Shown piece by piece: positions 26,146-45,827 of a stretch of 64,000 nt of DNA. The notes below the pieces were generated by a model. The model saw nothing but the letters and a program-made list of their open reading frames with translations, had not been told where the DNA came from and made no database searches. Made by a program: the position numbers and the translations under genes. Each line of letters begins with the position of its first letter. Within the stretch, counting starts at the first letter, position 1. Where the stretch lies: positions 23,394-87,393 of the forward strand of contig JBPOIC010000018.1 in assembly GCA_052034865.1 (NCBI GenBank), given 5' to 3'. This DNA comes from Myxococcota bacterium. Lineage in GTDB: Bacteria; UBA10199; JADFYH01.

Positions 26146-26166
26146 TGCAAAATTTTTGTCAGAGAA

Positions 26167-28241: not shown

Positions 28242-28272
28242 GCTTGTTTCGGATCGGTTTATTTAAAATATC

Positions 28273-29343
28273 ATGATCAAGGCAGCTCTTAAAAAAATTG
28301 TACAAGGTCTGGAAATTGAGCGTGAAGAAATGACCGCCGTGATGAGTTCTATTTTACTGGGAGGCAATGAAGCTGCAACATCCGATCAGGTAGGTGCTTT
28401 TTTGATGGGTCTTGCCACTCGAAAAGAAAAAAGCAGTGAAATTCTTTCGGTCCTTCAATTTGTCCTTGAGCAGCAAATTTCCTCACCCATCCGTCAAATT
28501 TCAAATGTAATCGATCTTTGTGGTACGGGAGGAGACGGAGGAAAAACTTTTAATGTTTCCACCTGTGCGGCGCTCATTGCCGCGGCAGCTGGTGTTTTGG
28601 TTGCAAAGCACGGCAATCGGGCTTTTTCTTCTGCTTGCGGGAGCGCCGATGTCGCCGAAGTTTTGGGAATTCCGATTCAACTTTCTCCTGAGCTCGCAGC
28701 GGAATGCTTGCGCCAAACAAATTTTGTTTTTCTTTTTGCTCCTGCGTACAATCCTGTTCTGGCGGCTGTTTCACAGGTGCGTCGAAATTTAGGAATTCGC
28801 ACGATCTTTAATCTGATCGGTCCCCTTGCCAATCCAGCCCGCGTGAAACGTCAGGTTCTGGGCGTTTCTGATTCCACGCTGCTTTTACTTTATGCCGAAA
28901 TCTTGTGCGATTTGAATGTCGACCATGCCCTGATTGTGCAGGGAGAGGATGGGCTCGATGAAGTCTCACTGATTGCATCCACTCGATGTGTTGAAATTCG
29001 AAAAGGACAAAAAAGTGATTTTATACTGAACCCTCGCGACTTGGGATTTTCTCTCTGTGCGCCCCATGAGATCGCCGGCAAAGATCGTTATCACAATGCC
29101 CAGATCATCGAAGCGGTGTTGAGCGGTAAAGATCGCTCTCCTTACCGATCTGTCTCCATTCTAAATGCTGCGATCGCTCTGTCTGTTTCTCCCCTATTCG
29201 ATGAAATTCAGACCCCCTCAGATCGGCTGAAGAAACTGATTCAAATGGCAGAGGAAGCGGTTGATTCCGGAAGAGCATTAGAAACCTTACAAAAACTCCG
29301 ATCCTTCAAAGCTCAGCATGAACTACCAAAACACCCTTCTTGA
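28273..29343 (+). CDS. trpD: anthranilate phosphoribosyltransferase
   Basis: 356 aa. GTGGDG phosphate-binding loop and ...KHGNRA.SS..GSADVLE.LG.... Confidence 0.95.
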   Translation: MIKAALKKIVQGLEIEREEMTAVMSSILLGGNEAATSDQVGAFLMGLATRKEKSSEILSVLQFVLEQQISSPIRQISNVIDLCGTGGDGGKTFNVSTCAALIAAAAGVLVAKHGNRAFSSACGSADVAEVLGIPIQLSPELAAECLRQTNFVFLFAPAYNPVLAAVSQVRRNLGIRTIFNLIGPLANPARVKRQVLGVSDSTLLLLYAEILCDLNVDHALIVQGEDGLDEVSLIASTRCVEIRKGQKSDFILNPRDLGFSLCAPHEIAGKDRYHNAQIIEAVLSGKDRSPYRSVSILNAAIALSVSPLFDEIQTPSDRLKKLIQMAEEAVDSGRALETLQKLRSFKAQHELPKHPS

Positions 29344-30133
29344 AAAAATCGTTCAAACCAAAAAAGAAGAAATCGCTTCTGGAAAATTGCGTGAGAGTCT
29401 TCAGGACTTGCGCAATCGCTGTCGTGATGCAGAGCTCACACGCTCTTTTGTCAAAATGTTCGATCCTTCCTTTTTGTCTCATGAACTTCCTCAAACGCGG
29501 ATTATCGCCGAGATCAAAAAAGCTTCTCCCTCCGCTGGACTCATTCGACCCGATTTCGATCCGGTTCGCCTCGCGCATACGTATGTTGACGCTGGGGCGG
29601 CCGCGATCTCCGTCCTCACCGATACCGTTTATTTTCAGGGATCGCTTTCCGACTTACAATCGGTCCGCAAAGTCAGCCCCCGTCCGGTTTTAAGAAAAGA
29701 TTTCATGATCGACCCTTACCAGATTTATGAAGCGCGGGCTTATGGCGCGGATTGTATTCTGGCGATCGTGGCCATTCTTGAAAAACAGCAGTTGATTGAT
29801 TTGTGCGGCCTGGCGAATGAATTGGGAATGGCCTCGCTCATTGAAGTTCACAACGAGGAAGAAACGCGTGTTGCTCTTCAGGTCGATCAGCCACAAGTGC
29901 TTTTGGGGGTGAATAATCGCGATTTAAAAACGCTTAAAATTGATTTGAAAACGACCGAGCGTTTGCGAAAACTGATTCCTTCCAAAAAAACTGTGATTGC
30001 GGAAAGTGGGATTTCCAACCGAAAGGAAATCGAGCATTATCTTTCTCAGGGCGTGAGTGGTTTTTTGATTGGTGAAGTGTTGATGAAAGAGAAAAATATT
30101 CGCGCGAAGTTTGATGAGCTGTTGGGAAGGTAG
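29318..30133 (+). CDS. trpC: indole-3-glycerol-phosphate synthase
   Basis: 271 aa. ...IAEIKKASPS.G.I..DFDP..., ...LIEVHNEEE..., ...GVNNRDLKT.... Confidence 0.9.
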   Translation: MNYQNTLLEKIVQTKKEEIASGKLRESLQDLRNRCRDAELTRSFVKMFDPSFLSHELPQTRIIAEIKKASPSAGLIRPDFDPVRLAHTYVDAGAAAISVLTDTVYFQGSLSDLQSVRKVSPRPVLRKDFMIDPYQIYEARAYGADCILAIVAILEKQQLIDLCGLANELGMASLIEVHNEEETRVALQVDQPQVLLGVNNRDLKTLKIDLKTTERLRKLIPSKKTVIAESGISNRKEIEHYLSQGVSGFLIGEVLMKEKNIRAKFDELLGR

Positions 30134-30164
30134 GCTCATCCTTATAACAAAAAGGAATTTCAAG

Positions 30165-30815
30165 GTGTCATCCCCTCTTATTAAAATTTGCGGTTTAACC
30201 AATCTCGAAGATACCCTCGCTGCGATCGATCTCGGAGCCGATCTTCTGGGTTTTAATTTTTACCCCGACTCTCCGCGCTATCTTTCGTGGGAAAAGGCTT
30301 TAAAAATATTTGATGAAATTCCAACCAATATTCCGAAGGTGGGTGTGTTTGTGAATGCGAATTTGCAGGGAGTGATCGACTACACCTGCGAGCTAGGGCT
30401 GGATTATATTCAGTTCCACGGCGATGAGACACCCGAATTCTGTAATGAGGTGGGGCATCCGTGGTTCAAGGCGTTTCGTCTTTCCGGTCCTGAGGTTCTT
30501 CAGCAGATTCGTTCCTATGAGTGTGATTGGGTTTTGATCGATGCCTATCAGAAAAATTCTTATGGAGGAACAGGTGCAAAGGCCGACTGGAGTCTGGCAC
30601 GACAGGTAAAGGAGACTTGCAGACAAGTCATTCTTGCGGGAGGGTTGGATCCGGACAACGTGCAGGTGGCAATTGCCAGCGTTCAGCCCTTTGGTGTGGA
30701 TGTGGCCAGTGGGGTTGAGAAAAAACCAGGAATCAAGGATCACAGGAAGATGGAATTGTTTATTCAGAGGGCGAAGTCGGTGGCGGTAAGATTGGTTCCT
30801 GACGGGGACCTCTAA
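30165..30815 (+). CDS. trpF: phosphoribosylanthranilate isomerase
   Basis: GTG start with aaggaa RBS gives VSSPLIKICGLTNLEDTLAAIDLGADLLGFNFYPDSPRY, the TrpF N-terminal signature. The ORF track's longer start at 30111 overlaps trpC. Confidence 0.85.
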   Translation: MSSPLIKICGLTNLEDTLAAIDLGADLLGFNFYPDSPRYLSWEKALKIFDEIPTNIPKVGVFVNANLQGVIDYTCELGLDYIQFHGDETPEFCNEVGHPWFKAFRLSGPEVLQQIRSYECDWVLIDAYQKNSYGGTGAKADWSLARQVKETCRQVILAGGLDPDNVQVAIASVQPFGVDVASGVEKKPGIKDHRKMELFIQRAKSVAVRLVPDGDL

Positions 30816-30975
30816 AAATTCCCCATTGGCGGCGTTCCCCGCTTCACCTGCACCTTGCGATTTAATGTAGGGTGTATTGCAATACGCCCCTAATACTGGG
30901 TTTGTGGGCGACTTGCCACTGGAGTTTTTCTGAGGCCCATTAAAAAATGAATATAGAGAGATGAGCTGATAAAGA

Positions 30976-31389
30976 TTAAGAATTGATTTTCTTTTTGGCG
31001 AAGCTTTTGTCTGCAAGACTCTGGATTTTGGAGAGCTCGAATCTTAAATTTTTGATGGGATGACCCTGGGATTTCTGACGGATTTTTTCAAGAATCGCAG
31101 GCTTCATAAAGTTGAGCTCCGTCATCCAGGCGTGGGAATCCACACCGACTACCAAGGTGTCTCCGGAAAAATGACTGGGCTTGGTCTTTTCAGCTATTTT
31201 TTCTCCAACAATATCTTCCCAATTGTTCATCACGGAATATTTCTGAATAGGTTTTTCCAGCTGAAGGTGTTTGAGCGTTGAACTTAAGATCGTGGAGATG
31301 GATTCTGGAATTTTGGAACGGGACATAGGACTGTGCCAAGTCAAAGAGAGAATTTCTGATGGCCGTTTGCTCTTGCTGCGTTGAGCCAT
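30976..31389 (-). CDS. DUF721 (DciA-like) family protein
   Basis: 137 aa. Central ...W..IVGEKIAEKTKP..F.GDTLVVGVDSHAWMTEL.F.K..ILEKI... pattern typical of DUF721. Weak-moderate. Confidence 0.5.
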   Translation of the reverse strand: MAQRSKSKRPSEILSLTWHSPMSRSKIPESISTILSSTLKHLQLEKPIQKYSVMNNWEDIVGEKIAEKTKPSHFSGDTLVVGVDSHAWMTELNFMKPAILEKIRQKSQGHPIKNLRFELSKIQSLADKSFAKKKINS

Positions 31390-31466
31390 TCAAAGCCTTT
31401 AAGCACTTCTTTCTCAGGTAAAAGAACGTTTGACAAGATCTCGATTCTTGAACCATCATAAAAATG

Positions 31467-31512
31467 TCGATATCGATATTTACTGTGAATCCAGCAGCTT
31501 GCTGGATTCACA
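31467..31512. promoter_or_regulatory. two perfect palindromes (TCGATATCGA and TGTGAATCCAGCAGCTTGCTGGATTCACA) in the divergent DUF721/dksA promoter region
   Basis: TCGATATCGA at 31467-31476 is a perfect 10-bp palindrome. 31484-31512 is a 29-bp palindrome with 11-12 bp arms, followed by a T-rich tract (ttttgtttctgggcttttt). Confidence 0.4.
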
Positions 31513-31654
31513 CTTTTGTTTCTGGGCTTTTTAACAAAGCTCAAAAACCCTAAGGCCCGGAGGGCATCCCTCGCGGGCTCTCGTTTTCTCTAATGACTTG
31601 ATAACAACAGATTCGCACCAAAAGATCGGGTGTGTTTGAAGAGGGAGAAGATTT

Positions 31655-32020
31655 ATGAATAAAAAAGATCTCAAGCGTTTTAAAGAAATCCTTTTGGAAA
31701 GAAGAAAAGAACTTTTGCACACGGCTGAAGCCACCCGTGAACGCGGAATGGTTCTCGACACTGATGATCTTCCGGATGAAGTCGACCTGGCCTCCTCCGA
31801 AGCCGATCAATCCATGAATTTGCTTTTAAGAGATCGAGAACGTGTGTTGGTGAAAAAAATCGATAAGGCTTTGGCCAAGATCGAGCGGGGAGATTATGGT
31901 GTGTGTGACTCGTGCGGAGAAGATATCGGAGCCAAAAGGCTCGAAGCGCGACCTGTCACCGATCTTTGTATTCGTTGCAAAGAAGAACAGGAGCGTATGG
32001 AAAGAAGTTACGCGGAGTAA
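31655..32020 (+). CDS. dksA: DksA/TraR-family C4 zinc-finger transcription factor
   Basis: 121 aa. Coiled-coil N-terminus and C-terminal CDSCGEDIGAKRLEARPVTDLCIRCK four-Cys finger. RBS gagggag. Confidence 0.9.
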   Translation: MNKKDLKRFKEILLERRKELLHTAEATRERGMVLDTDDLPDEVDLASSEADQSMNLLLRDRERVLVKKIDKALAKIERGDYGVCDSCGEDIGAKRLEARPVTDLCIRCKEEQERMERSYAE

Positions 32021-32081
32021 AAAATATCTTAAATAGTTTTATGAAACGGGGCTATTCGAGTCGAATCGAATGCCCCGTTTT

Positions 32082-33335
32082 TTATAGATTGTTCGTCAAC
32101 AACGCAGCCTCTCGGGCCGCTGCGAGCGAGGCAATGCGTGCGAGTTGATAGGAGAGTTTGACCAGGTTTGATTTTTCGATACAGCGAATAAACGGGGCTT
32201 CATGGGGTTGATCGAGCTTGTGCAGGCACAGACATGAAAAAAACATGCCGCGTGAATTGAGCGAGCTCCACTCATCTTTTTCTTCATTAAATCTGAAAAA
32301 ACCTCCGATTTGTTTTTCGCCTACCATGTAAATCACAGGTTCCATCGGGTATCCGCTGTAAAAATCGGCGGTGGCAATTCCTTCCTGAATCATGAAATCA
32401 CTCGCCCGGTTTCCTCCTTTGGTGCTGGTGAGTTTGTTGCGTGTCTTTCGATTCAAGTTCAGAATCTCTTCACCACTCGAAACAGACATCACGCCCATCC
32501 CATAGGTGCCAGAGTTGCTTTTGACAAATACGTAAGGACTTCCTTCAATCTGGTGCTCATCATATTTTTTCTGGATCTGATTTAAAAGATCATCCACTGC
32601 TTTTGCCAGTTTTTCGATTGAGGAAGAGTCATTAAAATCGATGTCTGTCTGAACGTTTGAAAGACAGGAGAGAAACCACGGGTCGAGAGAGAGCAGGTTT
32701 CCGACTTCAGAGGCCACCTGATTGTATATGTCGAAATGGTGGTGCTTTTGGCGCTGATACCAGCCGAGATCAGGTGGAGGAAGAAGAGGGATTTGAATTT
32801 CTTTCAGAAGAGGCTCAGGGCCGTTGGAGAAATCGTTATTTGAAAGGATCAGATCAGGGGTCCAGCCGTCGATCAGTTTCAAAGGAGATCCGGGATGCAG
32901 ACGATATATCTGCAGGATTTTTTCATTGCTGAGCGGAATCAAAGTCGGATCATCCGTAAAGTCTGGAGTATTGGCCGCAATCCGTACGTTATAACCCGCC
33001 GATTGGAGAATTTCAGACAGTCTTAAAAGGTTTTCGAAATAAAAACGGTTGCGGGTATGGGCTTCGGAGAAGATTAGAAGATTTTGAAGGTTGGGAAAAT
33101 GTTTTTTGAGATAGGTTTTAAATGTGGCGACGGCCTGCTCGGTGTAAACCTTGCACAGGTTATTAAACCCTGCCGGAAAAAGATTGGTATCGATAACACT
33201 CAGCTTGTGGCTGGAATTGCGGATATCGCACGAAAGATAAATCAGGGGAGGAGTTTTGGAGAATTCCTCTTCGAAATAACGCTCTAAAGCGATGAGGTTT
33301 TCGACAAAGCGCTCGTGGATATCATGGAGTTCCAT
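32082..33335 (-). CDS. ATP-grasp-like ligase of uncertain specificity (possibly GshA-like glutamate-cysteine ligase family)
   Basis: 417 aa. Segment SPYVFVKSNSGTYGMGVMSV resembles the ATP-grasp phosphate-binding strand. Remainder not recognised with confidence. Confidence 0.35.
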   Translation of the reverse strand: MELHDIHERFVENLIALERYFEEEFSKTPPLIYLSCDIRNSSHKLSVIDTNLFPAGFNNLCKVYTEQAVATFKTYLKKHFPNLQNLLIFSEAHTRNRFYFENLLRLSEILQSAGYNVRIAANTPDFTDDPTLIPLSNEKILQIYRLHPGSPLKLIDGWTPDLILSNNDFSNGPEPLLKEIQIPLLPPPDLGWYQRQKHHHFDIYNQVASEVGNLLSLDPWFLSCLSNVQTDIDFNDSSSIEKLAKAVDDLLNQIQKKYDEHQIEGSPYVFVKSNSGTYGMGVMSVSSGEEILNLNRKTRNKLTSTKGGNRASDFMIQEGIATADFYSGYPMEPVIYMVGEKQIGGFFRFNEEKDEWSSLNSRGMFFSCLCLHKLDQPHEAPFIRCIEKSNLVKLSYQLARIASLAAAREAALLTNNL

Positions 33336-33338
33336 AGT

Positions 33339-34529
33339 TCATTCCCGGATTTGAAGAATTCTCAAGTAGACTTCTCGTACATCATGGCGCAACTGATGAA
33401 AATATTCCAGAAAGTCATCCGCCGATTTTTCGCCCATTTTTTCTGCGAGGTTTTCAAGTAAGTGACTTTCCGGATCGATATAGCCATCTTTTAAACCAAA
33501 CAGAAGCTCCATACGCGTCTCTAACTTTCGGTAGAAAAGATAGGCATTTTTCAAAATCTCTGATTCGGCCTTCAGGATGAGGTTTTTTTCCTGAATCTTT
33601 TCAAGTGCAGATAAAGAATTTGTTTGAAGAATTGGTTCATAAATTTTTCCAAATCGCATTTGGAGATACTGAATGGTAAACTCGATATCAATCAAACCAC
33701 CCATGCCCTGCTTATAATGCAGTCGTCGTGGGGTTTCCCGTCCAATCTCTTTTTCCATACGCTGGCGCAAGCGATGAATCTCTTCATTTAAATCGAGTGG
33801 ATATGGAGAGGAGAAAACCAGTTGATGAAAGAGAGGGAGAAAAGTTTTTACAAATTCCGGATCACCCGCAACCGCACGGGCCTTCAGCAAGGCCTGTTTT
33901 TCCCAGGCTTGTGCCTGATTACGCTGATAGGTGACGTAGGCGTCAAGTGAGGTGACTAAAGCCCCCTGATTGCCGGAAGCCCTGAGTTGGGTATCGATCT
34001 TATATGCGATACCCTGAAGCGTATAGACCGAAAGATAGGAGATGAGTTTTTGCGCCAGGCGGGCATAGAATTCCTGATTGGTGATCTCCGATCTTCCCAC
34101 CGTTTTTCCATTTCTTGAAAAGACAAAGATCAGATCTAGATCGGATTCATAGTGAATTTCCTGTCCTCCCAATTTTCCCATTCCGATAATCGTAAACTCC
34201 GCGCGCATCATTCCACCCGACTGATCCTTAAACATCGGATATCCATACACACGGGCGACGTCTTCCTGCGCGAGTTGAAAGAGAGTGGTCAGTACAGTTT
34301 CGGCAACCCAGGTGAGCCCTTGAAAAACATCGGGAAGGGGAAGGGTTTCTTCGAGATCGGCTTTCTGAAGAAAGGCGACCTGGTCTTTTTTAAACAGTCG
34401 AACACGGTCGAGTTTGGTCTCTAAATCGTCGATACCTTCGAGGTAGGTTTTGATTTTTTCTTTTAGGTTTTGGGGGTTTAGTTCCAGGGTCATAAGGTTG
34501 GAAAATTGACTGGAAAACAGAAGGTTCAA
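33339..34529 (-). CDS. glnE: glutamine-synthetase adenylyltransferase GlnE, C-terminal (AT-C) half as a stand-alone ORF
   Basis: 396 aa. Nucleotidyltransferase motif IIGMGKLGGQEIHYESDLDLIFVF, then RLRASGNQGALVTSLDAYVTYQRNQAQAWEKQALLKARAVAGD and GGLIDIEFTIQYL, collinear with the E. coli GlnE AT-C domain. Confidence 0.8.
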   Translation of the reverse strand: MNLLFSSQFSNLMTLELNPQNLKEKIKTYLEGIDDLETKLDRVRLFKKDQVAFLQKADLEETLPLPDVFQGLTWVAETVLTTLFQLAQEDVARVYGYPMFKDQSGGMMRAEFTIIGMGKLGGQEIHYESDLDLIFVFSRNGKTVGRSEITNQEFYARLAQKLISYLSVYTLQGIAYKIDTQLRASGNQGALVTSLDAYVTYQRNQAQAWEKQALLKARAVAGDPEFVKTFLPLFHQLVFSSPYPLDLNEEIHRLRQRMEKEIGRETPRRLHYKQGMGGLIDIEFTIQYLQMRFGKIYEPILQTNSLSALEKIQEKNLILKAESEILKNAYLFYRKLETRMELLFGLKDGYIDPESHLLENLAEKMGEKSADDFLEYFHQLRHDVREVYLRILQIRE

Positions 34530-34646
34530 TAGTGAAAAACTCCCAGAATATCAAAAAATTAGCAACTTTTTTTATGGGGTGACGATGAGCAGTTTAAGAT
34601 CGGTAGTTTCTTATAAGAGTGTGTTTTTTAGATGCAGAGGTGAATT

Positions 34647-36614
34647 ATGGAAAAGGTGGTCCCTTTAGGAAAAGTGGTGTGGGAAAGAACTGGGGTTGAA
34701 GTAGATGCTGCGAGAATTCTTCCTGTGGGTTCTGAGGGGTTAGCGAGCAGTCGATACGACCTGAATGAATCTGAAGTGGCAGTCGAGATTGCTGATGCCG
34801 GCCAGTTCAGGGCACTACTCAAGTCTCCAAATTTACCAGAATATTGCAGAGTTCGTGCCTCTGAGAATGAGCTGCGTGAATATGTTGCGGAAATGGGGAC
34901 GGATATCGAGAGTTTGATTGCCAGAGGGGAGAGTCGAATTACAGCTCAAGTATTAACTCAGAACGGATTTTCGGAAACTGATGCAGAGCAGTCTATGGGA
35001 ATTCTCGCAAGAGCGATGACCTACTATAACCATCTGGGTGAAAAACAGAGACAAGGCACAGTGAGGGGGCATTTAAACGGTGGAGAAGGGGCACAGCATT
35101 TTTTTAATGTGGCTATGGGCATTGGCTTGGATATCGTTATTGAGAGTTTCATGCAGCAAAGGGAGAATGTAGACGATGGTCAGTTGGGTTTTATTTTGAG
35201 TGCAGCCTATTATGTGAGTGGTGATACCGAGAGTGGTTTGGCTTTTTTAGAGCTTGCGGCCAGGCTTGAAAAGAGAAGCAGCTCATCTGGTGAGCGGGTC
35301 TGTTTTAGAAAATGTGAAAGCGCCCTGCTAGCTCGAGGAATGTTGAATAGGATGTACCAATTTTATGTAGAGCATGAGTGGTATGAAAAAGCTGCCGGGA
35401 TTTATTTTAGAGGATTTTTAGAACAGCCTCAAGAATTCCAGTTTACTCCCGATCATCAAATTTTTTCTTACCTGATTCCTAAACTGAATCGAATGATTCA
35501 AGATCGCTCTTTTTCTTCTCAAACCAGAAGAGCGGCTGCATTTCAAGTAATAGAGCTTGTAAGGGGCAATTCAAATGCGAATACACTCCAACTGTCTGCA
35601 CTTTTAGATCCTTCCACTCTCTCGTCTCTCATCAATCAATCAGACTACGAAGACTCCAAAAAACTACTTTTGGCTTTACAGAGTCTTGTTCAAAAAATCC
35701 CAAACTATTTGAATAGGGTCACCGAAGTTCTGGTCAATTTGGTGATGGAGAATGGATCAGAGGTTACGACTCTTCTTCCCAAAATTTTTCATGGACTCTC
35801 TCTCCAGGCAAAACGGGATCTTATTCTTAAGTTAAAAGAGAGATCTTCAGAGGATCCTAAACTCCAACTCCTACTCGACAGACTTGCGATCGGGCAGGCG
35901 GTGGCCGTGATTCCTCATCCACAACCTGAATTAGGAGTTTATGCCCCTCGCGTGTTGGCGTATCTGCGTGCTGTAGGAGCGAACCTCTATGGTCGTGGGA
36001 TCCCTCCTGTTTTAGATCCTGATTCAAAAGAATCTGGTTTGCGAATGCTTCTTGATTGTCTGGATCGTGTCCTTAAGAACATGGATCCCTCCGGGCTTGA
36101 GGACCCTCTAGGGGCAATCATCGAAGAGATAATAGTTCAGGCTGTCGCTGAGGGTTACGAAATCAAGATCCCCCAGGAAACTCCTTTACGTTTTTTATGG
36201 AGGAAGCTGTTTCCAGGAAAGTCCTTATTGCCAACACCACCCGAAGAAATGGCTAAGGCAATTCTTGAGAGAGTCTTAACGGATGAGCCAGATGAATTCC
36301 CGCCCTCCATTCAAGGGCTGGTCATTGAACTTCAGGCGTGGGGAACTTTGTTTAGAAAGGATGAAAATCCTGATGCGGTGCCTCAAGCCATGATGGCGGC
36401 ATTGATAACGGCTGATTTTGGATCTGATGGAAAAATCCATTGGGAGTCTTTGAGTCTCATGCCCGAATCGGGAGAAAGAGAAGTAAGTTCGGAGCTGCTA
36501 TCTTTGAGAGCTGCTGTTACAGGTGCTCTCGCAGAAGCTTTATCGGGCGGGGTAGATAAACATGGCCGGGGATTGGAGCGCCAACCACTTCCTCTTTTAG
36601 GAAAAGGAAGATAA
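34647..36614 (+). CDS. hypothetical 655-aa protein (no recognisable domain), inside the glnE-splitting insert
   Basis: Long ORF, mostly alpha-helical by composition, no signal peptide. Codon flavour (AGT/AGG/TTA-rich, many GGGG runs) differs from neighbouring housekeeping genes. Confidence 0.6.
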   Translation: MEKVVPLGKVVWERTGVEVDAARILPVGSEGLASSRYDLNESEVAVEIADAGQFRALLKSPNLPEYCRVRASENELREYVAEMGTDIESLIARGESRITAQVLTQNGFSETDAEQSMGILARAMTYYNHLGEKQRQGTVRGHLNGGEGAQHFFNVAMGIGLDIVIESFMQQRENVDDGQLGFILSAAYYVSGDTESGLAFLELAARLEKRSSSSGERVCFRKCESALLARGMLNRMYQFYVEHEWYEKAAGIYFRGFLEQPQEFQFTPDHQIFSYLIPKLNRMIQDRSFSSQTRRAAAFQVIELVRGNSNANTLQLSALLDPSTLSSLINQSDYEDSKKLLLALQSLVQKIPNYLNRVTEVLVNLVMENGSEVTTLLPKIFHGLSLQAKRDLILKLKERSSEDPKLQLLLDRLAIGQAVAVIPHPQPELGVYAPRVLAYLRAVGANLYGRGIPPVLDPDSKESGLRMLLDCLDRVLKNMDPSGLEDPLGAIIEEIIVQAVAEGYEIKIPQETPLRFLWRKLFPGKSLLPTPPEEMAKAILERVLTDEPDEFPPSIQGLVIELQAWGTLFRKDENPDAVPQAMMAALITADFGSDGKIHWESLSLMPESGEREVSSELLSLRAAVTGALAEALSGGVDKHGRGLERQPLPLLGKGR

Positions 36615-36734
36615 TAAATGATGTGAGTGAAATTGTGAAAACCTCAGAAATCTCGCAACCTTTTTGTGTGCGTGACGAGAAGGTGTCACAAATGAGTTTG
36701 AGAGGTTTTAATTCACCAATACTTCGAGGTTGAT

Positions 36735-38243
36735 ATGGGAGATACAGTTCAAAGCAATACCTCAATCCCAAATAGTTACTCATCTAGCTCAAGTGAAATC
36801 CCTGTTTGCATAGGTGAATCCCGCACTCTCGTCGAAGCTTCACCAGATATAGATCCAGAGGAACTTAGAAACAGGTTCAATATTCCTCCAGATAAATTCT
36901 GCCGCGCTTTTTCTCACGCTGTTGGTAAGTATTATTTTGCAACCACTCAGGTTGAAGAATTATCCCCTTCACTTCCAGAATACTCACGACCCCCAAAAAA
37001 AGAATCGGGTGGAAACAACGGTCCAAAGAAGGTGGCCGATGGACTTCCTGACAATGTTGCTAGAAACTTTCTTATCGATACATTGGGACGTAAGCACGTT
37101 GAGCTAGCCTCTGGATCTCGAAATAAAATACTCGACCTCGCCACAGAAAATAAAAGGCTTCAGGATGAACTGAAAAGCCTCCAGGGTCTTGATGGCTCAG
37201 CGATTCATTTTTTCAGCTCCTGGACCGGAAAGGGAGTTGTGGGAGCAGCCTCGGCTGGATTTACTTTCGGTGTGCTCATTCCTAGTGCGAGAGATATTCA
37301 CACCATGATTCGTTTTGGGTTCAAGCCGTTCGGTGAAGCCAGTCTTTTGAGAGCGTATATCGATAAGTGTTTTAAGGAAGGTGATGAAGAGAGAAAGCTT
37401 AACTTGAGACAACTCAGAAGGTTGGAGCTTAGAAATGCACTCATCACAGCTCCTCTAGCGGCCGCAGCGATTGGCGCTGCTTATAAGGCGGAGCCTTATC
37501 TCTTCGGACCCAATGTGGCGAGTAAGGGCATTCAGGCGACTTCTCTCGCTTCTTCTTCACCTTTAGAGCAGCTCAAGAACATGCAGATTACGCTGCCTGA
37601 TCTTCCTCTTTCAGACTATCAAACACTAAAAACAAAAGATTTGAATGCATTGAGTGAAATTTATGATCGATTGAATCAGGCCCAGTCAGAATATCATAAC
37701 ATTGAACGCCGCCTGGTTTCTGAAAATGCAACTCTGAGAGAGCAGGTCAATTTGCTAAAGACGTCTCAAGAGAAAAGTCGTGGGGGGATGATCTACGCAG
37801 GCTTAGTCGGCACGGTGTTGGGCTTTGGTTATGCTGTCACCAAGGCTGAGGAAATGTATGGTTATTCATTGCTGCATCGTGCTGCGGAAAATACCCGCGG
37901 AAGAGTTAACGATAAGTTGCTTCGTATGCCCTGCCCGGAAGTGAATGTTCCAGGCTATGAACCAGCACCTGCAGCAGCACCAGATCCTATGCCAGTTAGA
38001 TTTCCTAAGCCTGAAGATTCGAGAGTATCTGATGCCCATGCCGACCCTGCCAGTGTGGCCGTGGGAGTTGCCGTTCCCACCGTTGCTGCGGCCGCGGTCG
38101 TGGGAACAGTGACAGCGAAAACCACCTTGTTTGCAAAACTCATGACCGGTTTGGGTGTTGCCGTAAGGGCGGTTGCGTCTGCTCCTGCTGCGGCGTTTGG
38201 ATTGATGATTACGTTTAAGAAAGATGATGTGCCGAGGGCTTAA
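36735..38243 (+). CDS. hypothetical 502-aa protein with coiled-coil region and Ala/Val-rich hydrophobic segments
   Basis: Hydrophobic Gly/Ala-rich stretches (GKGVVGAASAGFTFGVLIPSA; GMIYAGLVGTVLGFGYAV; C-terminal VAVGVAVPTVAAAAVVGTVTAKTTLFAKLMTGLGVAVRAVASAPAAAFGLMITF) flank a coiled-coil-like segment (LNQAQSEYHNIERRLVSENATLREQVNLL). Confidence 0.6.
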   Translation: MGDTVQSNTSIPNSYSSSSSEIPVCIGESRTLVEASPDIDPEELRNRFNIPPDKFCRAFSHAVGKYYFATTQVEELSPSLPEYSRPPKKESGGNNGPKKVADGLPDNVARNFLIDTLGRKHVELASGSRNKILDLATENKRLQDELKSLQGLDGSAIHFFSSWTGKGVVGAASAGFTFGVLIPSARDIHTMIRFGFKPFGEASLLRAYIDKCFKEGDEERKLNLRQLRRLELRNALITAPLAAAAIGAAYKAEPYLFGPNVASKGIQATSLASSSPLEQLKNMQITLPDLPLSDYQTLKTKDLNALSEIYDRLNQAQSEYHNIERRLVSENATLREQVNLLKTSQEKSRGGMIYAGLVGTVLGFGYAVTKAEEMYGYSLLHRAAENTRGRVNDKLLRMPCPEVNVPGYEPAPAAAPDPMPVRFPKPEDSRVSDAHADPASVAVGVAVPTVAAAAVVGTVTAKTTLFAKLMTGLGVAVRAVASAPAAAFGLMITFKKDDVPRA

Positions 38244-38527
38244 AGGTTTATTTTGGTGTTCATGGTTTGACCCTTCGACGAGCTCAGGACTCATGGTTCG
38301 ACAAACTCACCATGTCCCTCTCATTATAATGGGACATCCTAATCCTCCTACAGCGGGCTTGGTCTTTCGAAGGGTGAACAGGACAAGTTTTAAAAAGGGG
38401 AGGAGCTCTTAAGTCCTGAATTTCTCATCCATCCTGGGTGGGAGGATCCCCGCCTCTACAGATCCAAGGGAGGGACGCTTTTTAGCGGCTCGCCACGAAC
38501 GGCTTATCGAAGTTATTCTTCATTCCT

Positions 38528-39925
38528 CTATTCAAACAATCTATCAAACGTATTTTTTGCAATCGTTGTAAAACGCGTGAGATCATCGAGCAGACGCTCG
38601 CGGGCTTCTTCGGGATCCTCTTCATAATAACCCATGCGACGGGCAACCGCCTGTTGATCGACAGGTGTGTAAGGAAGGGTTTGCGTTTGGGACTCCTGCA
38701 CCAGCTGCAGACGATGCTCCAGGCGTCTTAGGAAAAGATAGGCATCTTTGAGCTGATGGGCTTCCTGGGCAGGAACGATCTCCTGTTTGGTGAGCTCCTG
38801 AAGGGCTTTGAGAGTCGAAGGTGATCGCAATTGAGGTTTGGATCCGCCATAAAGCATCTGCAGGGCCTGCACAAAAAATTCGATATCGCGAATGCCGCCT
38901 TCTCCGAGTTTTACATTAAATCCTTTGAGTGAAGAAGATTTGATCGACTCATGTGCCTTGCGCTTCATCTCTTTCATCCGGTTGATCGCCCCCAGATCCA
39001 GATGCTTTCTCCACACAAATGGCTCTAGAATTTTTTCAAATTCTTCTCCCAATTCGAGATCACCGGCGATCGGTGCCGAACGAATCAGGGCCTGACGTTC
39101 CCATTCTTCACCGAAACTCTCATAATAATTTTCAATGGCGTTGAGAGAATTTGCGAGGGTTCCACTGCGTCCTTCCGGTCGCAAATTCAAATCCACCCGA
39201 TATAAAAATCCTTCCGGCCGATTTTGTGAAAGCAGACGAGTCAGTTTTTCGGAGAGCTTGATAAAATACTCATGCAAACTCACATCACGAGGCCCGTGCA
39301 CACGACCTTCATCCGTCGAATAGATATATTGAAGATCGATATCCGAAGAATAATTGAGCTCGTTGCCACTGAGCTTGCCCATTCCAATCACACAAAAACC
39401 ACAAAATTCTCCGGGATTCGAAAGAAAGGCCTCACCCCAAGTGGAGCGCATCTTCATTTTCTCATAAGCGAGGGCCGCGCGAACCAGTGCAATCGCAAGA
39501 TTTGAGATTTCGGAAAGAACTGTTTCCTGACCTGCCGCCTGCGAGAGGTCCTTAACGGTCAGTCGCAAAAACTCACGATATTTGTAGCGGCACAGATGCG
39601 AAGCAAATTCTTCATCAGAGAAGGACTCGAGTCTTTCGGGCGCAAGCAAAAGGTCTTCTTCAAAGTCGGATAGTTTCTTATCGGTTTCGATGCAGGGTGA
39701 TGCAACGAGGCTGTCTGCCTCGAGAGGGTAGCGAATCAAAAACTGGCTTAGGAAATGGGAGTTTCCAAAGATGCTTAAAAGACGCTTGGCATTGACTGGC
39801 TCCAGATCAAAGTCCTTGCCAGCAAAGTCGATGTATTTTTGGGAGAAAAGCAGAAAGTCTTCGTAGGCGCGCTGCGGCTCGCCGGACCAATCAAGGATTT
39901 GCCTGATTTGAGCATCGATCTTCAT
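38528..39925 (-). CDS. glnE: glutamine-synthetase adenylyltransferase GlnE, N-terminal (AT-N, deadenylylating) half as a stand-alone ORF
   Basis: 465 aa. VIGMGKLSGNELNYSSDIDLQYIY, LRPEGRSGTLANSLNAIENYYESFGEEWERQALIRSAPIAGD, KLGEGGIRDIEFFVQALQ match the GlnE AT-N domain. Confidence 0.8.
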   Translation of the reverse strand: MKIDAQIRQILDWSGEPQRAYEDFLLFSQKYIDFAGKDFDLEPVNAKRLLSIFGNSHFLSQFLIRYPLEADSLVASPCIETDKKLSDFEEDLLLAPERLESFSDEEFASHLCRYKYREFLRLTVKDLSQAAGQETVLSEISNLAIALVRAALAYEKMKMRSTWGEAFLSNPGEFCGFCVIGMGKLSGNELNYSSDIDLQYIYSTDEGRVHGPRDVSLHEYFIKLSEKLTRLLSQNRPEGFLYRVDLNLRPEGRSGTLANSLNAIENYYESFGEEWERQALIRSAPIAGDLELGEEFEKILEPFVWRKHLDLGAINRMKEMKRKAHESIKSSSLKGFNVKLGEGGIRDIEFFVQALQMLYGGSKPQLRSPSTLKALQELTKQEIVPAQEAHQLKDAYLFLRRLEHRLQLVQESQTQTLPYTPVDQQAVARRMGYYEEDPEEARERLLDDLTRFTTIAKNTFDRLFE

Positions 39926-40123: not shown

Positions 40124-43100
40124 TTACAGCGAGCAACAATCCTCCATCACCCTCTTCAAATAAGTTTCGTGTTCAAACAATTGCTTTTGATCAAAATCAA
40201 AATCATATTTCAGATTTGCCAGAACAAAATAAAGCTGGGCTTTGAGAACTGGGTGATTGAGCATTTTCGAGGCCGCCAGGCAGTAGGTTTTTATCTGAAA
40301 TTCAAAATCATGCGCCAAAATATTCAGGTTCTCTCTTCCGACATGGGTGTGGGTTTTGTAATCGATCACGACCCAATCATCGTCCAGTCGAATCAGACGA
40401 TCCATCGCTCCGCGAAGACGATAGGGTGGATAAGACAAAAGAAAGGGGATCTCGGAATAACCGTCCTCAGCCTGAAGAATTTTTCTGAAGGTTTCGTCCT
40501 CCAGTGTTCTTTGAATGGATCGAATCAGAATTTGCCTGGCATTTTCATCCAGAGCACGATCGGGCAGAAAATCATTCGATCGATCGAGCAATCGATGCAG
40601 GTCTTTCTCGCTCTTGCTTTGGCTCAGCTCATAAAGAAACTGATGGAGAAAAATTCCCTTTTCGATGGGATCGATGTTCTCGGCATTTAAAGCAGATGAA
40701 AGATCGGTTGAAGAATTCTTTTTCTGTGGACGTGCTTCGACAGGAAGAAAACTCCGATAGCGTGAAAAAAAATCTTTAGGTGAGCGGATGAAACACTCGA
40801 GCTGAGTGACGCTAAAATCGGTTTGATGCAGTCTGAAGGAATATAAATCGGCTTGTTTGGTTTTTGTTCTGTTCTCAAAATCTTCAGTCTGGGCTGAAAA
40901 TAATAGTGTACTTTCGGATGCCTCATTTTGCTCTTTTTCGGCAGCGTCCGGATTCCAGATCGGAAGCAGATGTTTTCTTAAATGATTTCTATAGCTTTCC
41001 GACTTTTCATTTTCTTCCGGTAAAAAACCAAAGATCAGCTTTTGTGTGGCGCGGGTTGTGGCGACATAAAAAACCCGACGTGCTTCTTCTTCATCCGTAA
41101 TTTTTTTTCTCACCTTCCATTCTTTTAAAATCCCTGATTCCTCTTTTTGCACCTTCAGGCCCGTGTAGGGTTTGGGAAGATAGAGTGCGGGGATTTTTTC
41201 AAGAGCCTGGGCGATGGGTAAGGAATTGTTGGAATCCCGATAGGATAAATCCGGCAAAAAAACGATTGGCAGATCGAGTCCCTTGGTTTGATGAATCGTC
41301 ATGAAGGTTACGGATGGACCGGTGTGCGAAAAATCACTGAAGGGTTTGATTCTGTCTGTTTGGGTCTGCAACATTTGAAGATAATGAAGATATTCCTCAA
41401 GGGCTCCGTGGTTTTTCGTTTCCCATTCCTGGGTGAGGTTTAGAAACTGCAGTATATTTCCTGCCTTTTCTGCAAGAAAAGATTCCGTTTCGTAAAGAGT
41501 CACAAGACCAGTGCGGTATAAAATTTCTTTTAACAAAAGATAAGGAGAGGTTTTTGCTGAAAGGGTTTTAAGCCACTCGGTAAAAGGATGGAGGGAATGC
41601 CAGGTCTCCTCCCTGTGTTTCTGAAAAGCAAAGGCCATGAGCTCTTCATCTGGAACCCCCGCGAGGGGAGAGCGCAGGATACCAATGGCTGCGAGGGCGT
41701 CGTCTGGTTTTGCAATCAGTTTCAGGGCGTGGATGAGATCAAGAATCTCCTGTCGGGCAAGAAGCGAATCCCCTTTTTGAATTCTGGAAGTAATTCCTGT
41801 TCTACGTAAGGCCTGACGATAGGTTGAAGCAGGGTTGAGGGTGCGAAAACAAAAATAAATCTCATTGGGTGAGAATCCTTCCCGGATAAGACTCTGCACT
41901 CTCAACGCCATGGCATCGGCCTCCCGCTGGCGTTTTTCTTCGGCACCTAATGTCTTTTTCGATTTTTCCCCGCGGTTTTTTTTCGATGTAATTTCTTCTT
42001 CCAGCTCTTCCACCCAAAGACGCTCAATTCCTCCTTCGTTTTTTTCGGAGTGGAGCGGGACATAATCCAGAAAAAGATTTCTGAAAAAAGAATTTACCCA
42101 ATCAATCTGACAGTTGGGGCTTCTGAAATTCTGGGTGAGATAAACGGTTTTGCCACCGCTATTTTCGATGAGTTTCTGAAAATGCTCAAAGATGTGAGGT
42201 TTGGCTCCGCGAAATCCGTAAATCGATTGTTTAGGATCTCCGACGATGGCCAGATGTTTTCCTGGCGCGATCAAAGCTTCGCTGACGTTGATCTTTTCAG
42301 CTCCATCCGCACTTTCATTTTTATCAAGCGGAAGGCCCAGCAGGAGTTTAAGCAATTTTTCCTGAGCGGCATTGGTATCCTGAAATTCATCCACCAAAAA
42401 GGCCTTCCATATTTTTTGGTAGTGAGCGCGAATGTGTGGAAAATGACTCAAAAGAAAAATGGCCTTGTCCTCAAGATCTTTAAAATCAAGTCCCTGTTTT
42501 TCTTTTTTAAGCTCGCTGTAAGTCTGAAGGGTTGATCTGAAAATCCTGTTGAGGCTTTCCCAAAGCTCTTTTTCTACCTGGGTTCCGGCTTGAGAAAGTG
42601 CATCGTCCGGAAATTCTTTCCAGTCGAGCCAGTTTTTAAGCATGGCTAAGAGCTGCTCTTTAAGATTCGACCAGCCATAGGCGCGAATCAGCGTTTTGAG
42701 ATCGTCATTTTTTTCTTTCAGAATTCTGCCCAGATTTTTTTCCAGGGCTTCATGAGAAAGCAGGGCCGCCTCATTTTCATCCATTACTTGAAAGGAGGGG
42801 TCCAGATGGATAAACAGGGCGGATTCTCTGAGTATCCGCGTCGCCAGGGAGTGCAGGGTCGTGATCGGAGAAAAAGTCAGCTCTTCAAGAATCCAGTCAA
42901 AATCCGCCGCTACCCATTTTGATGAATAACCAAACACCGCTTCAGTTCCATGAAATCTGGCCTTTTGAATCAGATCTTCAATGCGCTCGCGCAACTCGCT
43001 TGCGGCCTTGTCGGTGAAAGTGGCGGCGACTATTTCGCAGGTTTTAAATTTTTCTTTCAGAATCAGGGCAAGAAAATGAGAAGCCAGAACCTGCGTCTTT

Positions 43101-43189
43101 CCGCAGCCCGCTCCTGACAGGATACACACGGGATGATCAATATTCAGAATGGCTTCCTGCTGTTCAGGTGTTGGTTTTTTGAGTGTCAT
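40124..43189 (-). CDS. addA: ATP-dependent helicase/nuclease subunit A (AddA/RexA, UvrD-like)
   Basis: 1021 aa. Walker A ILSGAGCGKTQVL, UvrD helicase blocks, C-terminal RecB-type nuclease motif VVIDYKTH. Confidence 0.9.
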   Translation of the reverse strand: MTLKKPTPEQQEAILNIDHPVCILSGAGCGKTQVLASHFLALILKEKFKTCEIVAATFTDKAASELRERIEDLIQKARFHGTEAVFGYSSKWVAADFDWILEELTFSPITTLHSLATRILRESALFIHLDPSFQVMDENEAALLSHEALEKNLGRILKEKNDDLKTLIRAYGWSNLKEQLLAMLKNWLDWKEFPDDALSQAGTQVEKELWESLNRIFRSTLQTYSELKKEKQGLDFKDLEDKAIFLLSHFPHIRAHYQKIWKAFLVDEFQDTNAAQEKLLKLLLGLPLDKNESADGAEKINVSEALIAPGKHLAIVGDPKQSIYGFRGAKPHIFEHFQKLIENSGGKTVYLTQNFRSPNCQIDWVNSFFRNLFLDYVPLHSEKNEGGIERLWVEELEEEITSKKNRGEKSKKTLGAEEKRQREADAMALRVQSLIREGFSPNEIYFCFRTLNPASTYRQALRRTGITSRIQKGDSLLARQEILDLIHALKLIAKPDDALAAIGILRSPLAGVPDEELMAFAFQKHREETWHSLHPFTEWLKTLSAKTSPYLLLKEILYRTGLVTLYETESFLAEKAGNILQFLNLTQEWETKNHGALEEYLHYLQMLQTQTDRIKPFSDFSHTGPSVTFMTIHQTKGLDLPIVFLPDLSYRDSNNSLPIAQALEKIPALYLPKPYTGLKVQKEESGILKEWKVRKKITDEEEARRVFYVATTRATQKLIFGFLPEENEKSESYRNHLRKHLLPIWNPDAAEKEQNEASESTLLFSAQTEDFENRTKTKQADLYSFRLHQTDFSVTQLECFIRSPKDFFSRYRSFLPVEARPQKKNSSTDLSSALNAENIDPIEKGIFLHQFLYELSQSKSEKDLHRLLDRSNDFLPDRALDENARQILIRSIQRTLEDETFRKILQAEDGYSEIPFLLSYPPYRLRGAMDRLIRLDDDWVVIDYKTHTHVGRENLNILAHDFEFQIKTYCLAASKMLNHPVLKAQLYFVLANLKYDFDFDQKQLFEHETYLKRVMEDCCSL

Positions 43190-45827
43190 GGTAGCGGCAG
43201 ATGGGTTTGTAGTCGCAATACGGATCGCAAGGATCTGGCTTTGGCGAGAAATTCCCCTTCAGAATGTTTTCGTAGGCTTTTAACAGATTTGATTTTAGCT
43301 GAATAAAACAGTCCTCCCACTCCTGTTCGTCGTACCAGATCTGGGATCTCCCATTTACCAGGAGGGGATTGTCCTTTCCTTTCTGAATCAGGCCCTGATT
43401 AAATTTAAAATCCTTCAGATCAAGAAGCATTCCGCCCAGAGCCACTGATTCTTTCAGCAGGGTTTGAATCGCCAACACATACACGGGGAGCTGAATGTAT
43501 TTGCCGGTACGAATTTCGCTGTTCAGACTCTCCACCGAGCCTGTCTTGTAATCATAGACAATGAAGGATTTGCGATCTTTCGAAAAATCGATCCGATCAA
43601 CACGCCCCCGGATTTTTAAGGAAACTTTTCCCTCTCCCTTGATTTCGAGCGGGGGTTTTCCTTCCTGACCAAACGCGAATTCAAAATAGGTTGGAAAATA
43701 AGGATTCGCTGTCTGCGCCATTTTTTCCCAGAATGTTTCCAGAAGCATCTCGATCATGCGCTTCATCTTTTCACAAAAATCTTCCGACAGCATTTCATCA
43801 ATCCATGGTTTTTCCTTGAGAAACCCTTTGGTAAATTCCCGAAGCTTCGGTTCGATCTGGTGAATCAGGGGTTTGCGAAGCTCTGTCTTAAAGAGGGATT
43901 GATGGATGGACTCCTGGTTTGACTGAAAGAAAACCTCCAGAAAACGATGGACCCAATTTCCACGATCCAGATGTGAGCCCTCCGGACTTTCTTCCGGTTC
44001 GACTTTCAGATGCAAAAGATTAGAAGCAAAAAATCGAAAAGGACAGGTTTGGTAGTCCTGAAGTTGAGAAGGGGTGAAGACATGGTCCTGCATTTTATCT
44101 GAAAGGATTTTTAGATGAGAGGAATTCAGAATCTGGCCAGAGTGCGGGTGAGGAGTTTCAGAATTTTTTTGACGAAAAATTTCCATTTCGAGCCGAGCCT
44201 GAAGATCTTTAAGGTCACAGTGATGTGGATAAAGACTCGGATGATTTTCCTGATTCCATTCTTTCAGGTTAAAATCGGCCAGGAGAGAGGAGGGACTGGT
44301 TTCTTTTCCATTCATCAGGATGCTGGAGTGACTGATCAGCGTTTCATTCTCTGCGGCATCCAGAAGCTGCTGAAGGATGGCCTTCTCTGATCTACGAGTG
44401 TGGCGTGAGGGGAGCGGCAGACCCAAAAAATAATCTGGAGATTTCGGAAATGCTTCCGCATTCAATCCAAAAAGGCATGCGAATTTAAATTTTTTAAGTC
44501 CGGGCATTCGATGCGAGCGCAGGCAGATTCCATTATGTGTCATGGGGATTGAAGGAAGAGTTTGCCCCTGAGCGAGGGACGAAAGAGAGATTCTACCGAT
44601 TGCTTGCGGAAATTCGTGTTGATAAAGACGGGCTTCCTCCAAAAGATTCTTCCAACATGAGAGCGCGCGCAACTCTTGCGAGAGCATATCCGCCCAGGAT
44701 TCGTTCCTTAAATAACCCATGGCCTGCTTTTCAGAATAGAGCAGCTCCATTTCTTCCTGGCATTTCTCAAGCCCTGAAAGGGCTTCCTCCATATTCATCC
44801 CAAAACTTGAGCGAATGGGTGAAAAACAGGCTAATGGTTTTTCTACGCCTTGCGCAAATCCAATCCCCGCCTGAGAAAGAAGGGTCTCGAAATAATCCCG
44901 CCAGAATGGATTCTGAGGGAGAAAGAGTGCCATTTCAGCAGGCGCAATTCCTTCCTTCACTTTGTCTAAAATCTGCTGCACGACAAAACCCGCCTCGGCA
45001 AAGGGAGTGGGAAACTTAAGAAGTTTTGGCTTGTGAGTGCGCTCTGTTGCAGGAAGATCGGTGATGGCAGGGCCTTGAAAAACTTCCCACAGCGATAAAT
45101 CCTGAATGTTTTTTCCGTGAGGTTTCTGAAGCAGTACAATCTGTTTGAGATCTTTCAGGTGAGTGAGGGCCTGCATGGTTTTCAGAATCCAGGGCGTGAG
45201 CTCAAGAAAACCAAACCAATAGATTTTGCGAATGGGATTTAAAGTGCCTGAGTGAGAAGATGAGATCGCCCGGATCGTCTGGTGGCAGGCTTCAGCCGGA
45301 TCCATAAGCAGGGGATGGGTTTCAATTTTCTTCTGATAACGTTGAAGCAGGGCGTTACAGTCCTCGGCGAAGTCAGGGCTGAGATCATTCAGGAATGCCC
45401 CAAGATGCGCGGGCGATTTGGCCTCATTTCGAAAGGCCGTAAAAAGACGTAACAGATTTTTTCCAATCGCCTCATGAGAAAGATTTTTAAGAAGATCGCT
45501 TTTGGGATTCGGATTCAAACAGGATAACAAAATTTTTTCGTGCACCCAGCGCGGGGCCATGCGAGCCTTTGGATTTATCTGCTTGAGCTGATGTTGGATC
45601 CATTGCGGAAAGGAAAGGAGGCTCGATCCGGTGAGTACTCCTCCAAGCCTTGGGTCTTCTAATAACTCCAGGCTTAAATCCTGGGCACTCGTCATGTCAG
45701 GAGTAAGGATTAAAAAATCATCTGTCAGGTGATGGCCGATATGCTGGGTGATGATCGCATCTAGCAGGGCGCGGACGGGTTTTCTCAAATCATCGCAGGT
45801 AAGAATTTCGATGGGAGAGACGGACAC
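43164..45827 (-). CDS. addB: helicase/nuclease subunit B (AddB/RexB, PD-(D/E)XK nuclease with Fe-S staple)
   Basis: 887 aa. C-terminal nuclease motif IVYDYKTGS plus a CPFRF...CDPYCDYKPICRY four-Cys cluster. 26-nt overlap with addA. Confidence 0.85.
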   Translation of the reverse strand: MSVSPIEILTCDDLRKPVRALLDAIITQHIGHHLTDDFLILTPDMTSAQDLSLELLEDPRLGGVLTGSSLLSFPQWIQHQLKQINPKARMAPRWVHEKILLSCLNPNPKSDLLKNLSHEAIGKNLLRLFTAFRNEAKSPAHLGAFLNDLSPDFAEDCNALLQRYQKKIETHPLLMDPAEACHQTIRAISSSHSGTLNPIRKIYWFGFLELTPWILKTMQALTHLKDLKQIVLLQKPHGKNIQDLSLWEVFQGPAITDLPATERTHKPKLLKFPTPFAEAGFVVQQILDKVKEGIAPAEMALFLPQNPFWRDYFETLLSQAGIGFAQGVEKPLACFSPIRSSFGMNMEEALSGLEKCQEEMELLYSEKQAMGYLRNESWADMLSQELRALSCWKNLLEEARLYQHEFPQAIGRISLSSLAQGQTLPSIPMTHNGICLRSHRMPGLKKFKFACLFGLNAEAFPKSPDYFLGLPLPSRHTRRSEKAILQQLLDAAENETLISHSSILMNGKETSPSSLLADFNLKEWNQENHPSLYPHHCDLKDLQARLEMEIFRQKNSETPHPHSGQILNSSHLKILSDKMQDHVFTPSQLQDYQTCPFRFFASNLLHLKVEPEESPEGSHLDRGNWVHRFLEVFFQSNQESIHQSLFKTELRKPLIHQIEPKLREFTKGFLKEKPWIDEMLSEDFCEKMKRMIEMLLETFWEKMAQTANPYFPTYFEFAFGQEGKPPLEIKGEGKVSLKIRGRVDRIDFSKDRKSFIVYDYKTGSVESLNSEIRTGKYIQLPVYVLAIQTLLKESVALGGMLLDLKDFKFNQGLIQKGKDNPLLVNGRSQIWYDEQEWEDCFIQLKSNLLKAYENILKGNFSPKPDPCDPYCDYKPICRYHDTQKTNT

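Follow-up and report, generated by a model that had tools for sequence, protein, structure and literature searches.

GlnE is a bifunctional enzyme known from textbooks. Its opposing activities, the adenylylation and the deadenylylation of glutamine synthetase (GS), are believed to be kept in step inside a single polypeptide via a central regulatory domain and PII. In a stretch of 64,000 nucleotides (nt) from a Myxococcota bacterium (lineage UBA10199; JADFYH01 of GTDB; assembly GCA_052034865.1, contig JBPOIC010000018.1, positions 23,394 to 87,393), referred to as the window in the following, the two halves of glnE are separate genes, and two large open reading frames (ORFs) of the opposite strand lie between them. 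The question raised by this locus is whether a functional glnE was broken by foreign DNA or whether the gene was already split when the DNA arrived. Comparison with related genomes clearly showed that the split is older than the insert. The fission is very probably ancestral, and about 4.0 kb later entered the intergenic spacer between the halves, which is the best overall explanation of the locus.

An earlier note on this DNA had described the halves as separate minus-strand ORFs in the order of a single glnE, each with its nucleotidyltransferase motif and helical domain, and with two uncharacterised plus-strand ORFs and a 284-nt tail between them. This description was borne out. All four ORFs were recovered by ORF listing at the same coordinates and on the same strands, and the elements of the locus are as follows.

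38528-39925, minus strand: glnE-N, 465 amino acids (aa), AT-N-like, putative adenylyl-removing half, which closes the co-directional run addB-addA-glnE_N
33339-34529, minus strand: glnE-C, AT-C-like, putative adenylyltransferase half, 396 aa when read from TTG 34529, located 3 nt upstream of gshA
34647-36614, plus strand: ORF3, an orphan of 655 aa, predicted to be soluble and all-alpha with a helical-repeat or solenoid-like structure
36735-38243, plus strand: ORF4, an orphan of 502 aa with predicted long coiled coils and a Ser-rich N-terminus
38244-38527, no strand: non-coding spacer of 284 nt, towards which ORF4 and glnE-N converge with their 3' ends
34494-34646, no strand: AT-rich spacer from which ORF3 and glnE-C diverge, 117-153 nt long according to the start chosen for glnE-C

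Order of the fission and the insertion

The contexts of glnE were compared in GTDB species representatives and in metagenome contigs. The related genomes carry the NCBI labels 'Deltaproteobacteria bacterium' or 'bacterium', and the lineage is uncultured and represented by thinly sampled metagenome-assembled genomes (MAGs). The search with glnE-N delivered a family of about 28 stand-alone N halves, all of 439-483 aa and with 53-63% identity. In ten related loci (L002, L004, L005, L006, L009, L010, L034, L035, L036 and L037; 43-63% identity to the window), the halves are adjacent, separate genes, and the cargo is absent at both the protein and the DNA level. The ten loci share the block addB-addA-glnE_N-glnE_C-gshA, whose genes all point the same way; in most of them, dksA comes next in the opposite orientation. 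The start of glnE-C and the stop of glnE-N overlap by 4 nt in five of them (L005, L006, L009, L010 and L036), and a gap of 9 to 90 nt separates the halves in the other five. Overlaps of 4 nt are the mark of genes with coupled translation and not that of sequencing frameshifts.

When the N halves were arranged in a tree by neighbour joining, the window grouped with L002 and L034, in both of which the two genes are adjacent. The basal position is taken by L010 (43% identity), which is also split, and L012, a Pseudobdellovibrionaceae MAG, forms the outgroup. The latter carries the nearest fused orthologue, a single GlnE ORF of 826 aa, which is tiled by the two halves of the window with nothing lost (glnE-N on residues 16-447, glnE-C on residues 438-818). 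Since ten relatives are split and free of cargo, and since the window is nested among them, the split predates the insert.

The earlier note had favoured a foreign two-gene cassette that split an intact glnE in the inter-domain linker, and had mentioned an ancient fission with later passengers as the alternative. The halves indeed keep the order and orientation of a single glnE with the cargo exactly between them, and the codon usage of the cargo departs from that of the host. However, a cassette of this kind is at odds with the ten cargo-free pairs of genes and with the position of the window in the tree; moreover, glnE-N displays the normal C-terminus and stop of its family, and glnE-C begins where its orthologues begin. 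The splitting of an intact glnE by the cassette is therefore almost certainly wrong, and the claim of a functional gene broken by foreign DNA does not hold. It is the alternative of the earlier note, the ancient fission, which is supported by the adjacent genes of the relatives and by the tree. As an event, the insert is nothing unusual: orphan genes specific to this lineage were gained in the spacer between two genes.

The present locus would have arisen in three steps. The ancestor would have possessed a short GlnE, from which most of the central regulatory region was already missing. A single fission at the domain boundary would then have produced glnE-N and glnE-C, back to back and often with the 4-nt overlap. 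Much later, and in the genome of the window alone, about 4.0 kb with ORF3 and ORF4 would have entered the spacer, leaving both halves intact. The genes on either side of the locus are both syntenic in the relatives.

32082-33335, minus strand: gshA, glutamate-cysteine ligase (PF08886, E value 7e-127; TIGR02049)
40124-43189, minus strand: addA-like helicase-nuclease (UvrD-helicase, UvrD_C, PDDEXK_1), upstream neighbour of glnE-N

Anatomy of the two halves and the missing central region

In both halves, the domain PF03710 (GlnE) is followed by PF08335 (GlnD_UR_UTase). The E values were 6e-58 and 1e-34 in glnE-N and 6e-60 and 3.5e-13 in glnE-C. Among solved structures, the best match of glnE-N was AT-N of Escherichia coli (1v4a, 213 bits, vs 161 bits for AT-C, 3k7d), and that of glnE-C was AT-C (3k7d, 184 bits, vs 139 bits for 1v4a). 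On the 946 positions of NCBIfam PRK11072, glnE-N spans 30-437 and glnE-C spans 589-870 and beyond. By these matches, glnE-N and glnE-C are two different domains of GlnE and not one domain duplicated. A single GlnE polypeptide of about 950 aa, as represented by the NCBIfam equivalogs PRK11072, PRK14108 and PRK14109, is absent, and neither half alone reaches the PRK11072 cutoff of 487 (345 bits for glnE-N, 266 bits for glnE-C).

GlnD, the PII uridylyltransferase, also has the helical domain PF08335 and shares the fold of the nucleotidyltransferases. The possibility that the halves are GlnD-like paralogues which do not reconstitute one GlnE, raised in the earlier note as a refutation, was rejected: the GlnD models gave E values of 1e-9 to 1e-6 only, compared to 1e-103 and 1e-79 for GlnE; the HD and ACT domains of GlnD are not present in the halves; and orthology assigns each half to its own domain of GlnE, as also seen from the tiling of L012.

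The catalytic motif G-x11-D-x-D is intact in both proteins (GKLSGNELNYSSDID in glnE-N, GKLGGQEIHYESDLD in glnE-C), and its residues are invariant in the alignments (N half: G183...D195-I-D197; C half: G118...D130-L-D132). Across 24 aligned N-half orthologues of 439-483 aa, G183, K184, D195, D197 and D245 are all invariant. Invariant columns amount to 106 among these 24 N halves and to 95 among 12 C halves, and only two private substitutions were counted in glnE-N of the window. Within these alignments, the sequences of the window do not stand out as outliers. Both halves would be active enzymes acting on GS.

About 135-150 residues of canonical GlnE have no counterpart in the two halves (438-588 of PRK11072; 470-618 of PRK14108). 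In agreement with this gap, residue 24 of glnE-C aligns to residue 148 of the 498-residue chain of 3k7d. We take this chain to comprise residues 449-946 of the E. coli protein, and its residue 148 would then correspond to about residue 596. The exact borders of the central domain are reportedly to be found in the work of Clancy et al. from 2007. The central region is likewise missing in the fused GlnE of L012 and across the split clade. A break with no residues missing, which the earlier note had proposed to test for, is thus seen only in comparison to L012 and not in comparison to canonical GlnE. According to the published domain assignment, the central regulatory domain is the region through which PII acts (PMC12409994).

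The two halves resemble E. coli GlnE by their two homologous nucleotidyltransferase domains in the same order, each with G-x11-D-x-D and PF08335. They differ from it in forming two polypeptides instead of one and in lacking the central residues, and in the genome of the window also by the distance of 4 kb between the genes, which would preclude co-transcription. The GlnE of L012 shares with the window the short architecture without central region, the end-to-end tiling and an adjacent dksA; it is nevertheless a single ORF with only 32-37% identity to the window halves. A truncated GlnE of Herbaspirillum seropedicae (ΔNT-GlnE, residues 438-928) adenylylates GS and senses glutamine, and its response to GlnB-UMP is lost (bioRxiv 10.64898/2026.09.02.748916). 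By analogy, it is plausible that the free-standing halves work as enzymes, since GlnE domains on their own retain catalytic competence in vitro. AT-N and AT-C constructs of GlnE were reportedly described by Jaggi et al. in 1997. The natural halves correspond to such single-domain constructs. The engineered truncations, however, are laboratory-made and retain the central domain, whereas the halves described here are natural, lineage-wide and devoid of it.

Borders of the insert, assembly and expression

The likely start of glnE-C, as defined by alignment with 11 orthologues, is ATG 34493 (Met13 of the window ORF), which gives a protein of 384 aa. Translation from TTG 34529 adds 12 residues which are missing from all ten orthologues beginning at the aligned position; glnE-C of L008 has a longer extension, unrelated to these 12 residues. 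It is also this aligned start that takes part in the 4-nt overlap with the glnE-N stop in the five relatives mentioned above. Counted from the glnE-N stop, the insert comprises 3,998 nt to TTG 34529 or 4,034 nt to ATG 34493. The 36 nt upstream of the ATG read ...SVFQSIF... in another frame, which resembles the C-terminus of the N half. A relic of the glnE-N 3' end was considered here and rejected, as the score of the position-specific scoring matrix was equalled by 15% of dinucleotide shuffles and by 52 other natural windows of 154 nt.

Both cargo/glnE junctions were reproduced in an independent assembly (Logan, run SRR34217545), as each of two contigs crosses one of them. The first contig corresponds to positions 49925-36860 of the window with 100% identity and joins addA and glnE-N to ORF4, and the second one to positions 36586-23308 with 99.98% identity and joins ORF3 to glnE-C and gshA. 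Between them, the two contigs of this same run leave 36587-36859 open, one ending on each side without any overlap, which is what a misjoin of the MAG or missing sequence inside the ORF3/ORF4 spacer would predict. No strong repeat explaining the break was found at this place, and low coverage or strain variation could be its cause. An artefact of assembly is nevertheless very improbable: a glnE half and a cargo ORF are linked independently in each Logan contig, and a misjoin would require two separate rearrangements. In every relative, addA-glnE_N and glnE_C-gshA are neighbours. The join restores this universal synteny, so a chimera is unlikely.

The explanation by an ancestral fission and a later gain of DNA between two working halves has several points against it. 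No integrase, transposase or recombinase was found among ORF3 and ORF4 (Pfam, NCBIfam, PHROG), a repeat search detected no terminal or inverted repeats at the insert ends, and no tRNA is adjacent to the insert. The target-site duplications which the earlier note had suggested looking for at the borders did not appear either, as the longest k-mer common to the junction zones has 7 nt, the length expected from shuffles. The 273 nt of the ORF3/ORF4 spacer at 36587-36859 are bridged by the MAG contig only. The translational coupling of glnE-C to glnE-N is lost in the window, and there is no clear Shine-Dalgarno site before ATG 34493. Nine private substitutions were counted in glnE-C, mostly conservative, compared to 4-5 in its nearest peers; one of them, P184A, affects the LRPSG motif, which is invariant in the other orthologues, and some relaxation of constraint on glnE-C is conceivable. 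Finally, neither glnA nor glnB was found in the 64-kb window by tblastn with E. coli sequences as queries.

The lack of a Shine-Dalgarno site and the nine private substitutions, P184A included, would also suit a system disabled by the insert, in which the uncoupled glnE-C is decaying or silent and effectively only the adenylyl-removing half is kept. We consider this improbable. The glnE-C gene is of full length without frameshift or stop, it has kept the catalytic residues and the 95 invariant columns, and most of its private changes are conservative. In addition, the essential-looking gshA, 3 nt downstream, requires transcription through glnE-C. The missing Shine-Dalgarno site fits a former reliance of glnE-C on coupling to glnE-N, and the excess of private substitutions appears mild and unlike that of a pseudogene. 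Both halves look constrained.

With ORF4 convergent to glnE-N and ORF3 divergent from glnE-C, a common transcript of glnE-N with glnE-C and gshA would no longer be possible. The gene glnE-N would now be the terminal gene of its transcription unit, and glnE-C and gshA would need a new promoter in the AT-rich spacer, which would also have to serve ORF3. The opposing activities would in this way lose both co-transcription and translational coupling. The GC content of the spacer is 33% over 34530-34646, and a consensus scan, which is weak evidence, gave a promoter-like site at 34506-34533 on the plus strand only. No structured RNA was matched in the insert or the spacers (Rfam), and the folding of 38244-38527 was no better than that of shuffled sequences (z scores of -0.4 and -0.95).

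The orphan ORFs and recurrent gains in the spacer

Both cargo ORFs are orphans. ORF3 and ORF4 matched only themselves among 5.8 billion protein clusters in a word-indexed search, and ORF3 again matched only itself when 1.84 billion representatives were searched exhaustively with phmmer. No match was found in Pfam, NCBIfam, PHROG or PADLOC. No relative was detected in IMG/VR viral contigs or JGI metagenome contigs, and no paralogue elsewhere in the window or in the loci retrieved from the relatives. PHROG, PADLOC and the viral contigs gave no indication of phage or anti-phage defence cargo.

The absence of any homologue, the poorest codon fit among the large ORFs of the window and the low confidence of the structure models could indicate that ORF3 and ORF4 are non-functional, being frames which opened recently or are now decaying within acquired junk DNA. 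This is unlikely, as several features argue for real genes. At the local composition, the chance of encountering no stop is 3e-17 over the 655 codons of ORF3 and 2e-13 over the 502 codons of ORF4. A Shine-Dalgarno sequence is located 5 nt before the ATG in both cases (GAGGTG for ORF3, GAGGT for ORF4), and the cargo shows a higher GC content at the first than at the second codon position (GC1 > GC2), matching the host genes. Together, length, Shine-Dalgarno sequence and GC1 > GC2 make chance ORFs very unlikely. The two ORFs are also arranged in tandem on the same strand, in an operon-like manner, and they are presumably expressed. Two further large ORFs without Pfam family are present in the window, at 16293-19091 (932 aa) and 60106-63192 (1028 aa; GC content at third codon positions, GC3, of 0.38). 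Family-less large proteins seem to be common in this genome, and among them ORF3 and ORF4 stand out less as orphans. The lineage is also thinly sampled.

An atypical composition of the insert, as considered in the earlier note, was found in codon usage and not in overall GC content, which is 46.1% in the cargo vs 46.3% in the window. In comparison to 24 ORFs of at least 300 aa, codon fit was the worst of the large ORFs (z scores of -4.2 for ORF3 and -3.3 for ORF4), and GC3 was lower as well (z scores of -1.9 and -1.6). This codon usage fits foreign or fast-evolving, weakly expressed genes.

Single-sequence AlphaFold2 models were of low confidence for both proteins. The predicted local distance difference test (pLDDT) score was 48 for ORF3, with 60-80 at residues 190-410 (a moderately confident helical-repeat core), and 44 for ORF4, whose model is helical. 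With Foldseek against the PDB, only generic ARM/HEAT matches were obtained for ORF3, with template modelling (TM) scores of 0.13-0.25, uninformative beyond 'all-alpha'; for the cargo overall, the matches were generic ARM/HEAT or coiled-coil structures with TM scores of 0.1-0.25. ORF4 possesses a C-terminal double hydrophobic segment at residues 437-494. From these predictions, ORF3 may be a helical-repeat protein and ORF4 a membrane-anchored coiled-coil protein, both presumably unrelated to nitrogen control. Nothing links the two ORFs to nitrogen control or to GlnE.

The same glnE_N|glnE_C spacer has received other DNA elsewhere in the lineage. An unrelated gene for a protein of about 820 aa, on the same strand as the halves, was found there in L007 (4539-6995) and L008 (6105-8567). 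Its product has a hydrophobic, signal-peptide-like N-terminus, immunoglobulin-like domains of the ASH/Cep192 type and a hydrophobic C-terminal anchor; the copy of L007 also gave weak, below-cut-off Pfam matches to Beta_helix and Chlam_PMP. The two proteins are 64% identical to each other and show no similarity to the cargo of the window. The spacer was invaded independently in the separate L007/L008 subclade. In L035, an ORF of 518 aa without Pfam family (10755-12311) is located between glnE_C and gshA. Together with the window, these gains indicate that the conserved block accumulates lineage-specific genes at its intergenic joints. A cargo representing the antisense of such inserts after decay in the relatives (the protein of about 820 aa of L007/L008 or the ORF of L035) was considered and rejected, as tblastn gave no match.

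A palindromic repeat that occurs across the lineage (ATGGTTCGACAAACTCACCATGTCCC) has a single, degenerate copy at 38271-38318, within the 284-nt tail, and this is the only site in the 64-kb window. Genomes with only 55-60% identity between their proteins share the core of the repeat, ATGGTTCGACA[AG][AG]CTCACCATGTCC, as conserved DNA sequence. Full hairpins with arms of 25 nt are present in L036 (10538-10615, glnE_C/gshA spacer) and in L007 (7030-7110, insert/glnE_C spacer); in the window copy, one arm is degenerate. In two independent inserts, the repeat is located at the border of the inserted DNA. It may be an element resembling repetitive extragenic palindromic (REP) sequences, or a terminator. 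In the spurious minus-strand ORF 37866-38294, the window copy reads '...VSLSNHE' or 'PELVEGSNHE'.

The remaining interest of the locus lies in what appears to be a naturally bipartite GlnE without central domain across a whole uncultured lineage. No description of a natural glnE fission was found in the searchable literature, of which the coverage was incomplete. With separate activities and no central region, this lineage would offer a ready-made test of the need for intramolecular coupling, and of the other means by which futile cycling between adenylylation and deadenylylation is prevented. A broader and clearly more tentative reading, which we regard as possible rather than probable, joins the present observations: the whole lineage would run the adenylylation cycle of GS with a free-standing adenylyl-remover and a free-standing adenylyltransferase without the canonical central PII-binding region, and control would be achieved by separate expression or by protein-protein association instead of intramolecular signalling. 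The window would then be the extreme case, with separate transcription units, and the glnE_N|glnE_C spacer a recurrent landing site for two independent and unrelated inserts, one of them a two-gene module without public homologue.

The surroundings of the locus (23308-33335 and 40124-45827) are of housekeeping, chromosomal character, with trp operon genes, dciA, dksA, gshA and addA/addB, followed by dnaX. The RNA of the signal recognition particle is encoded at 54812-54909, and the only tRNA gene of the window, tRNA-Ser, at 53622-53708. In L034, the closest relative (63% identity), dksA is replaced downstream of gshA by a DUF559 gene and two PhdYeFM/ParE toxin-antitoxin pairs (7830-9846).

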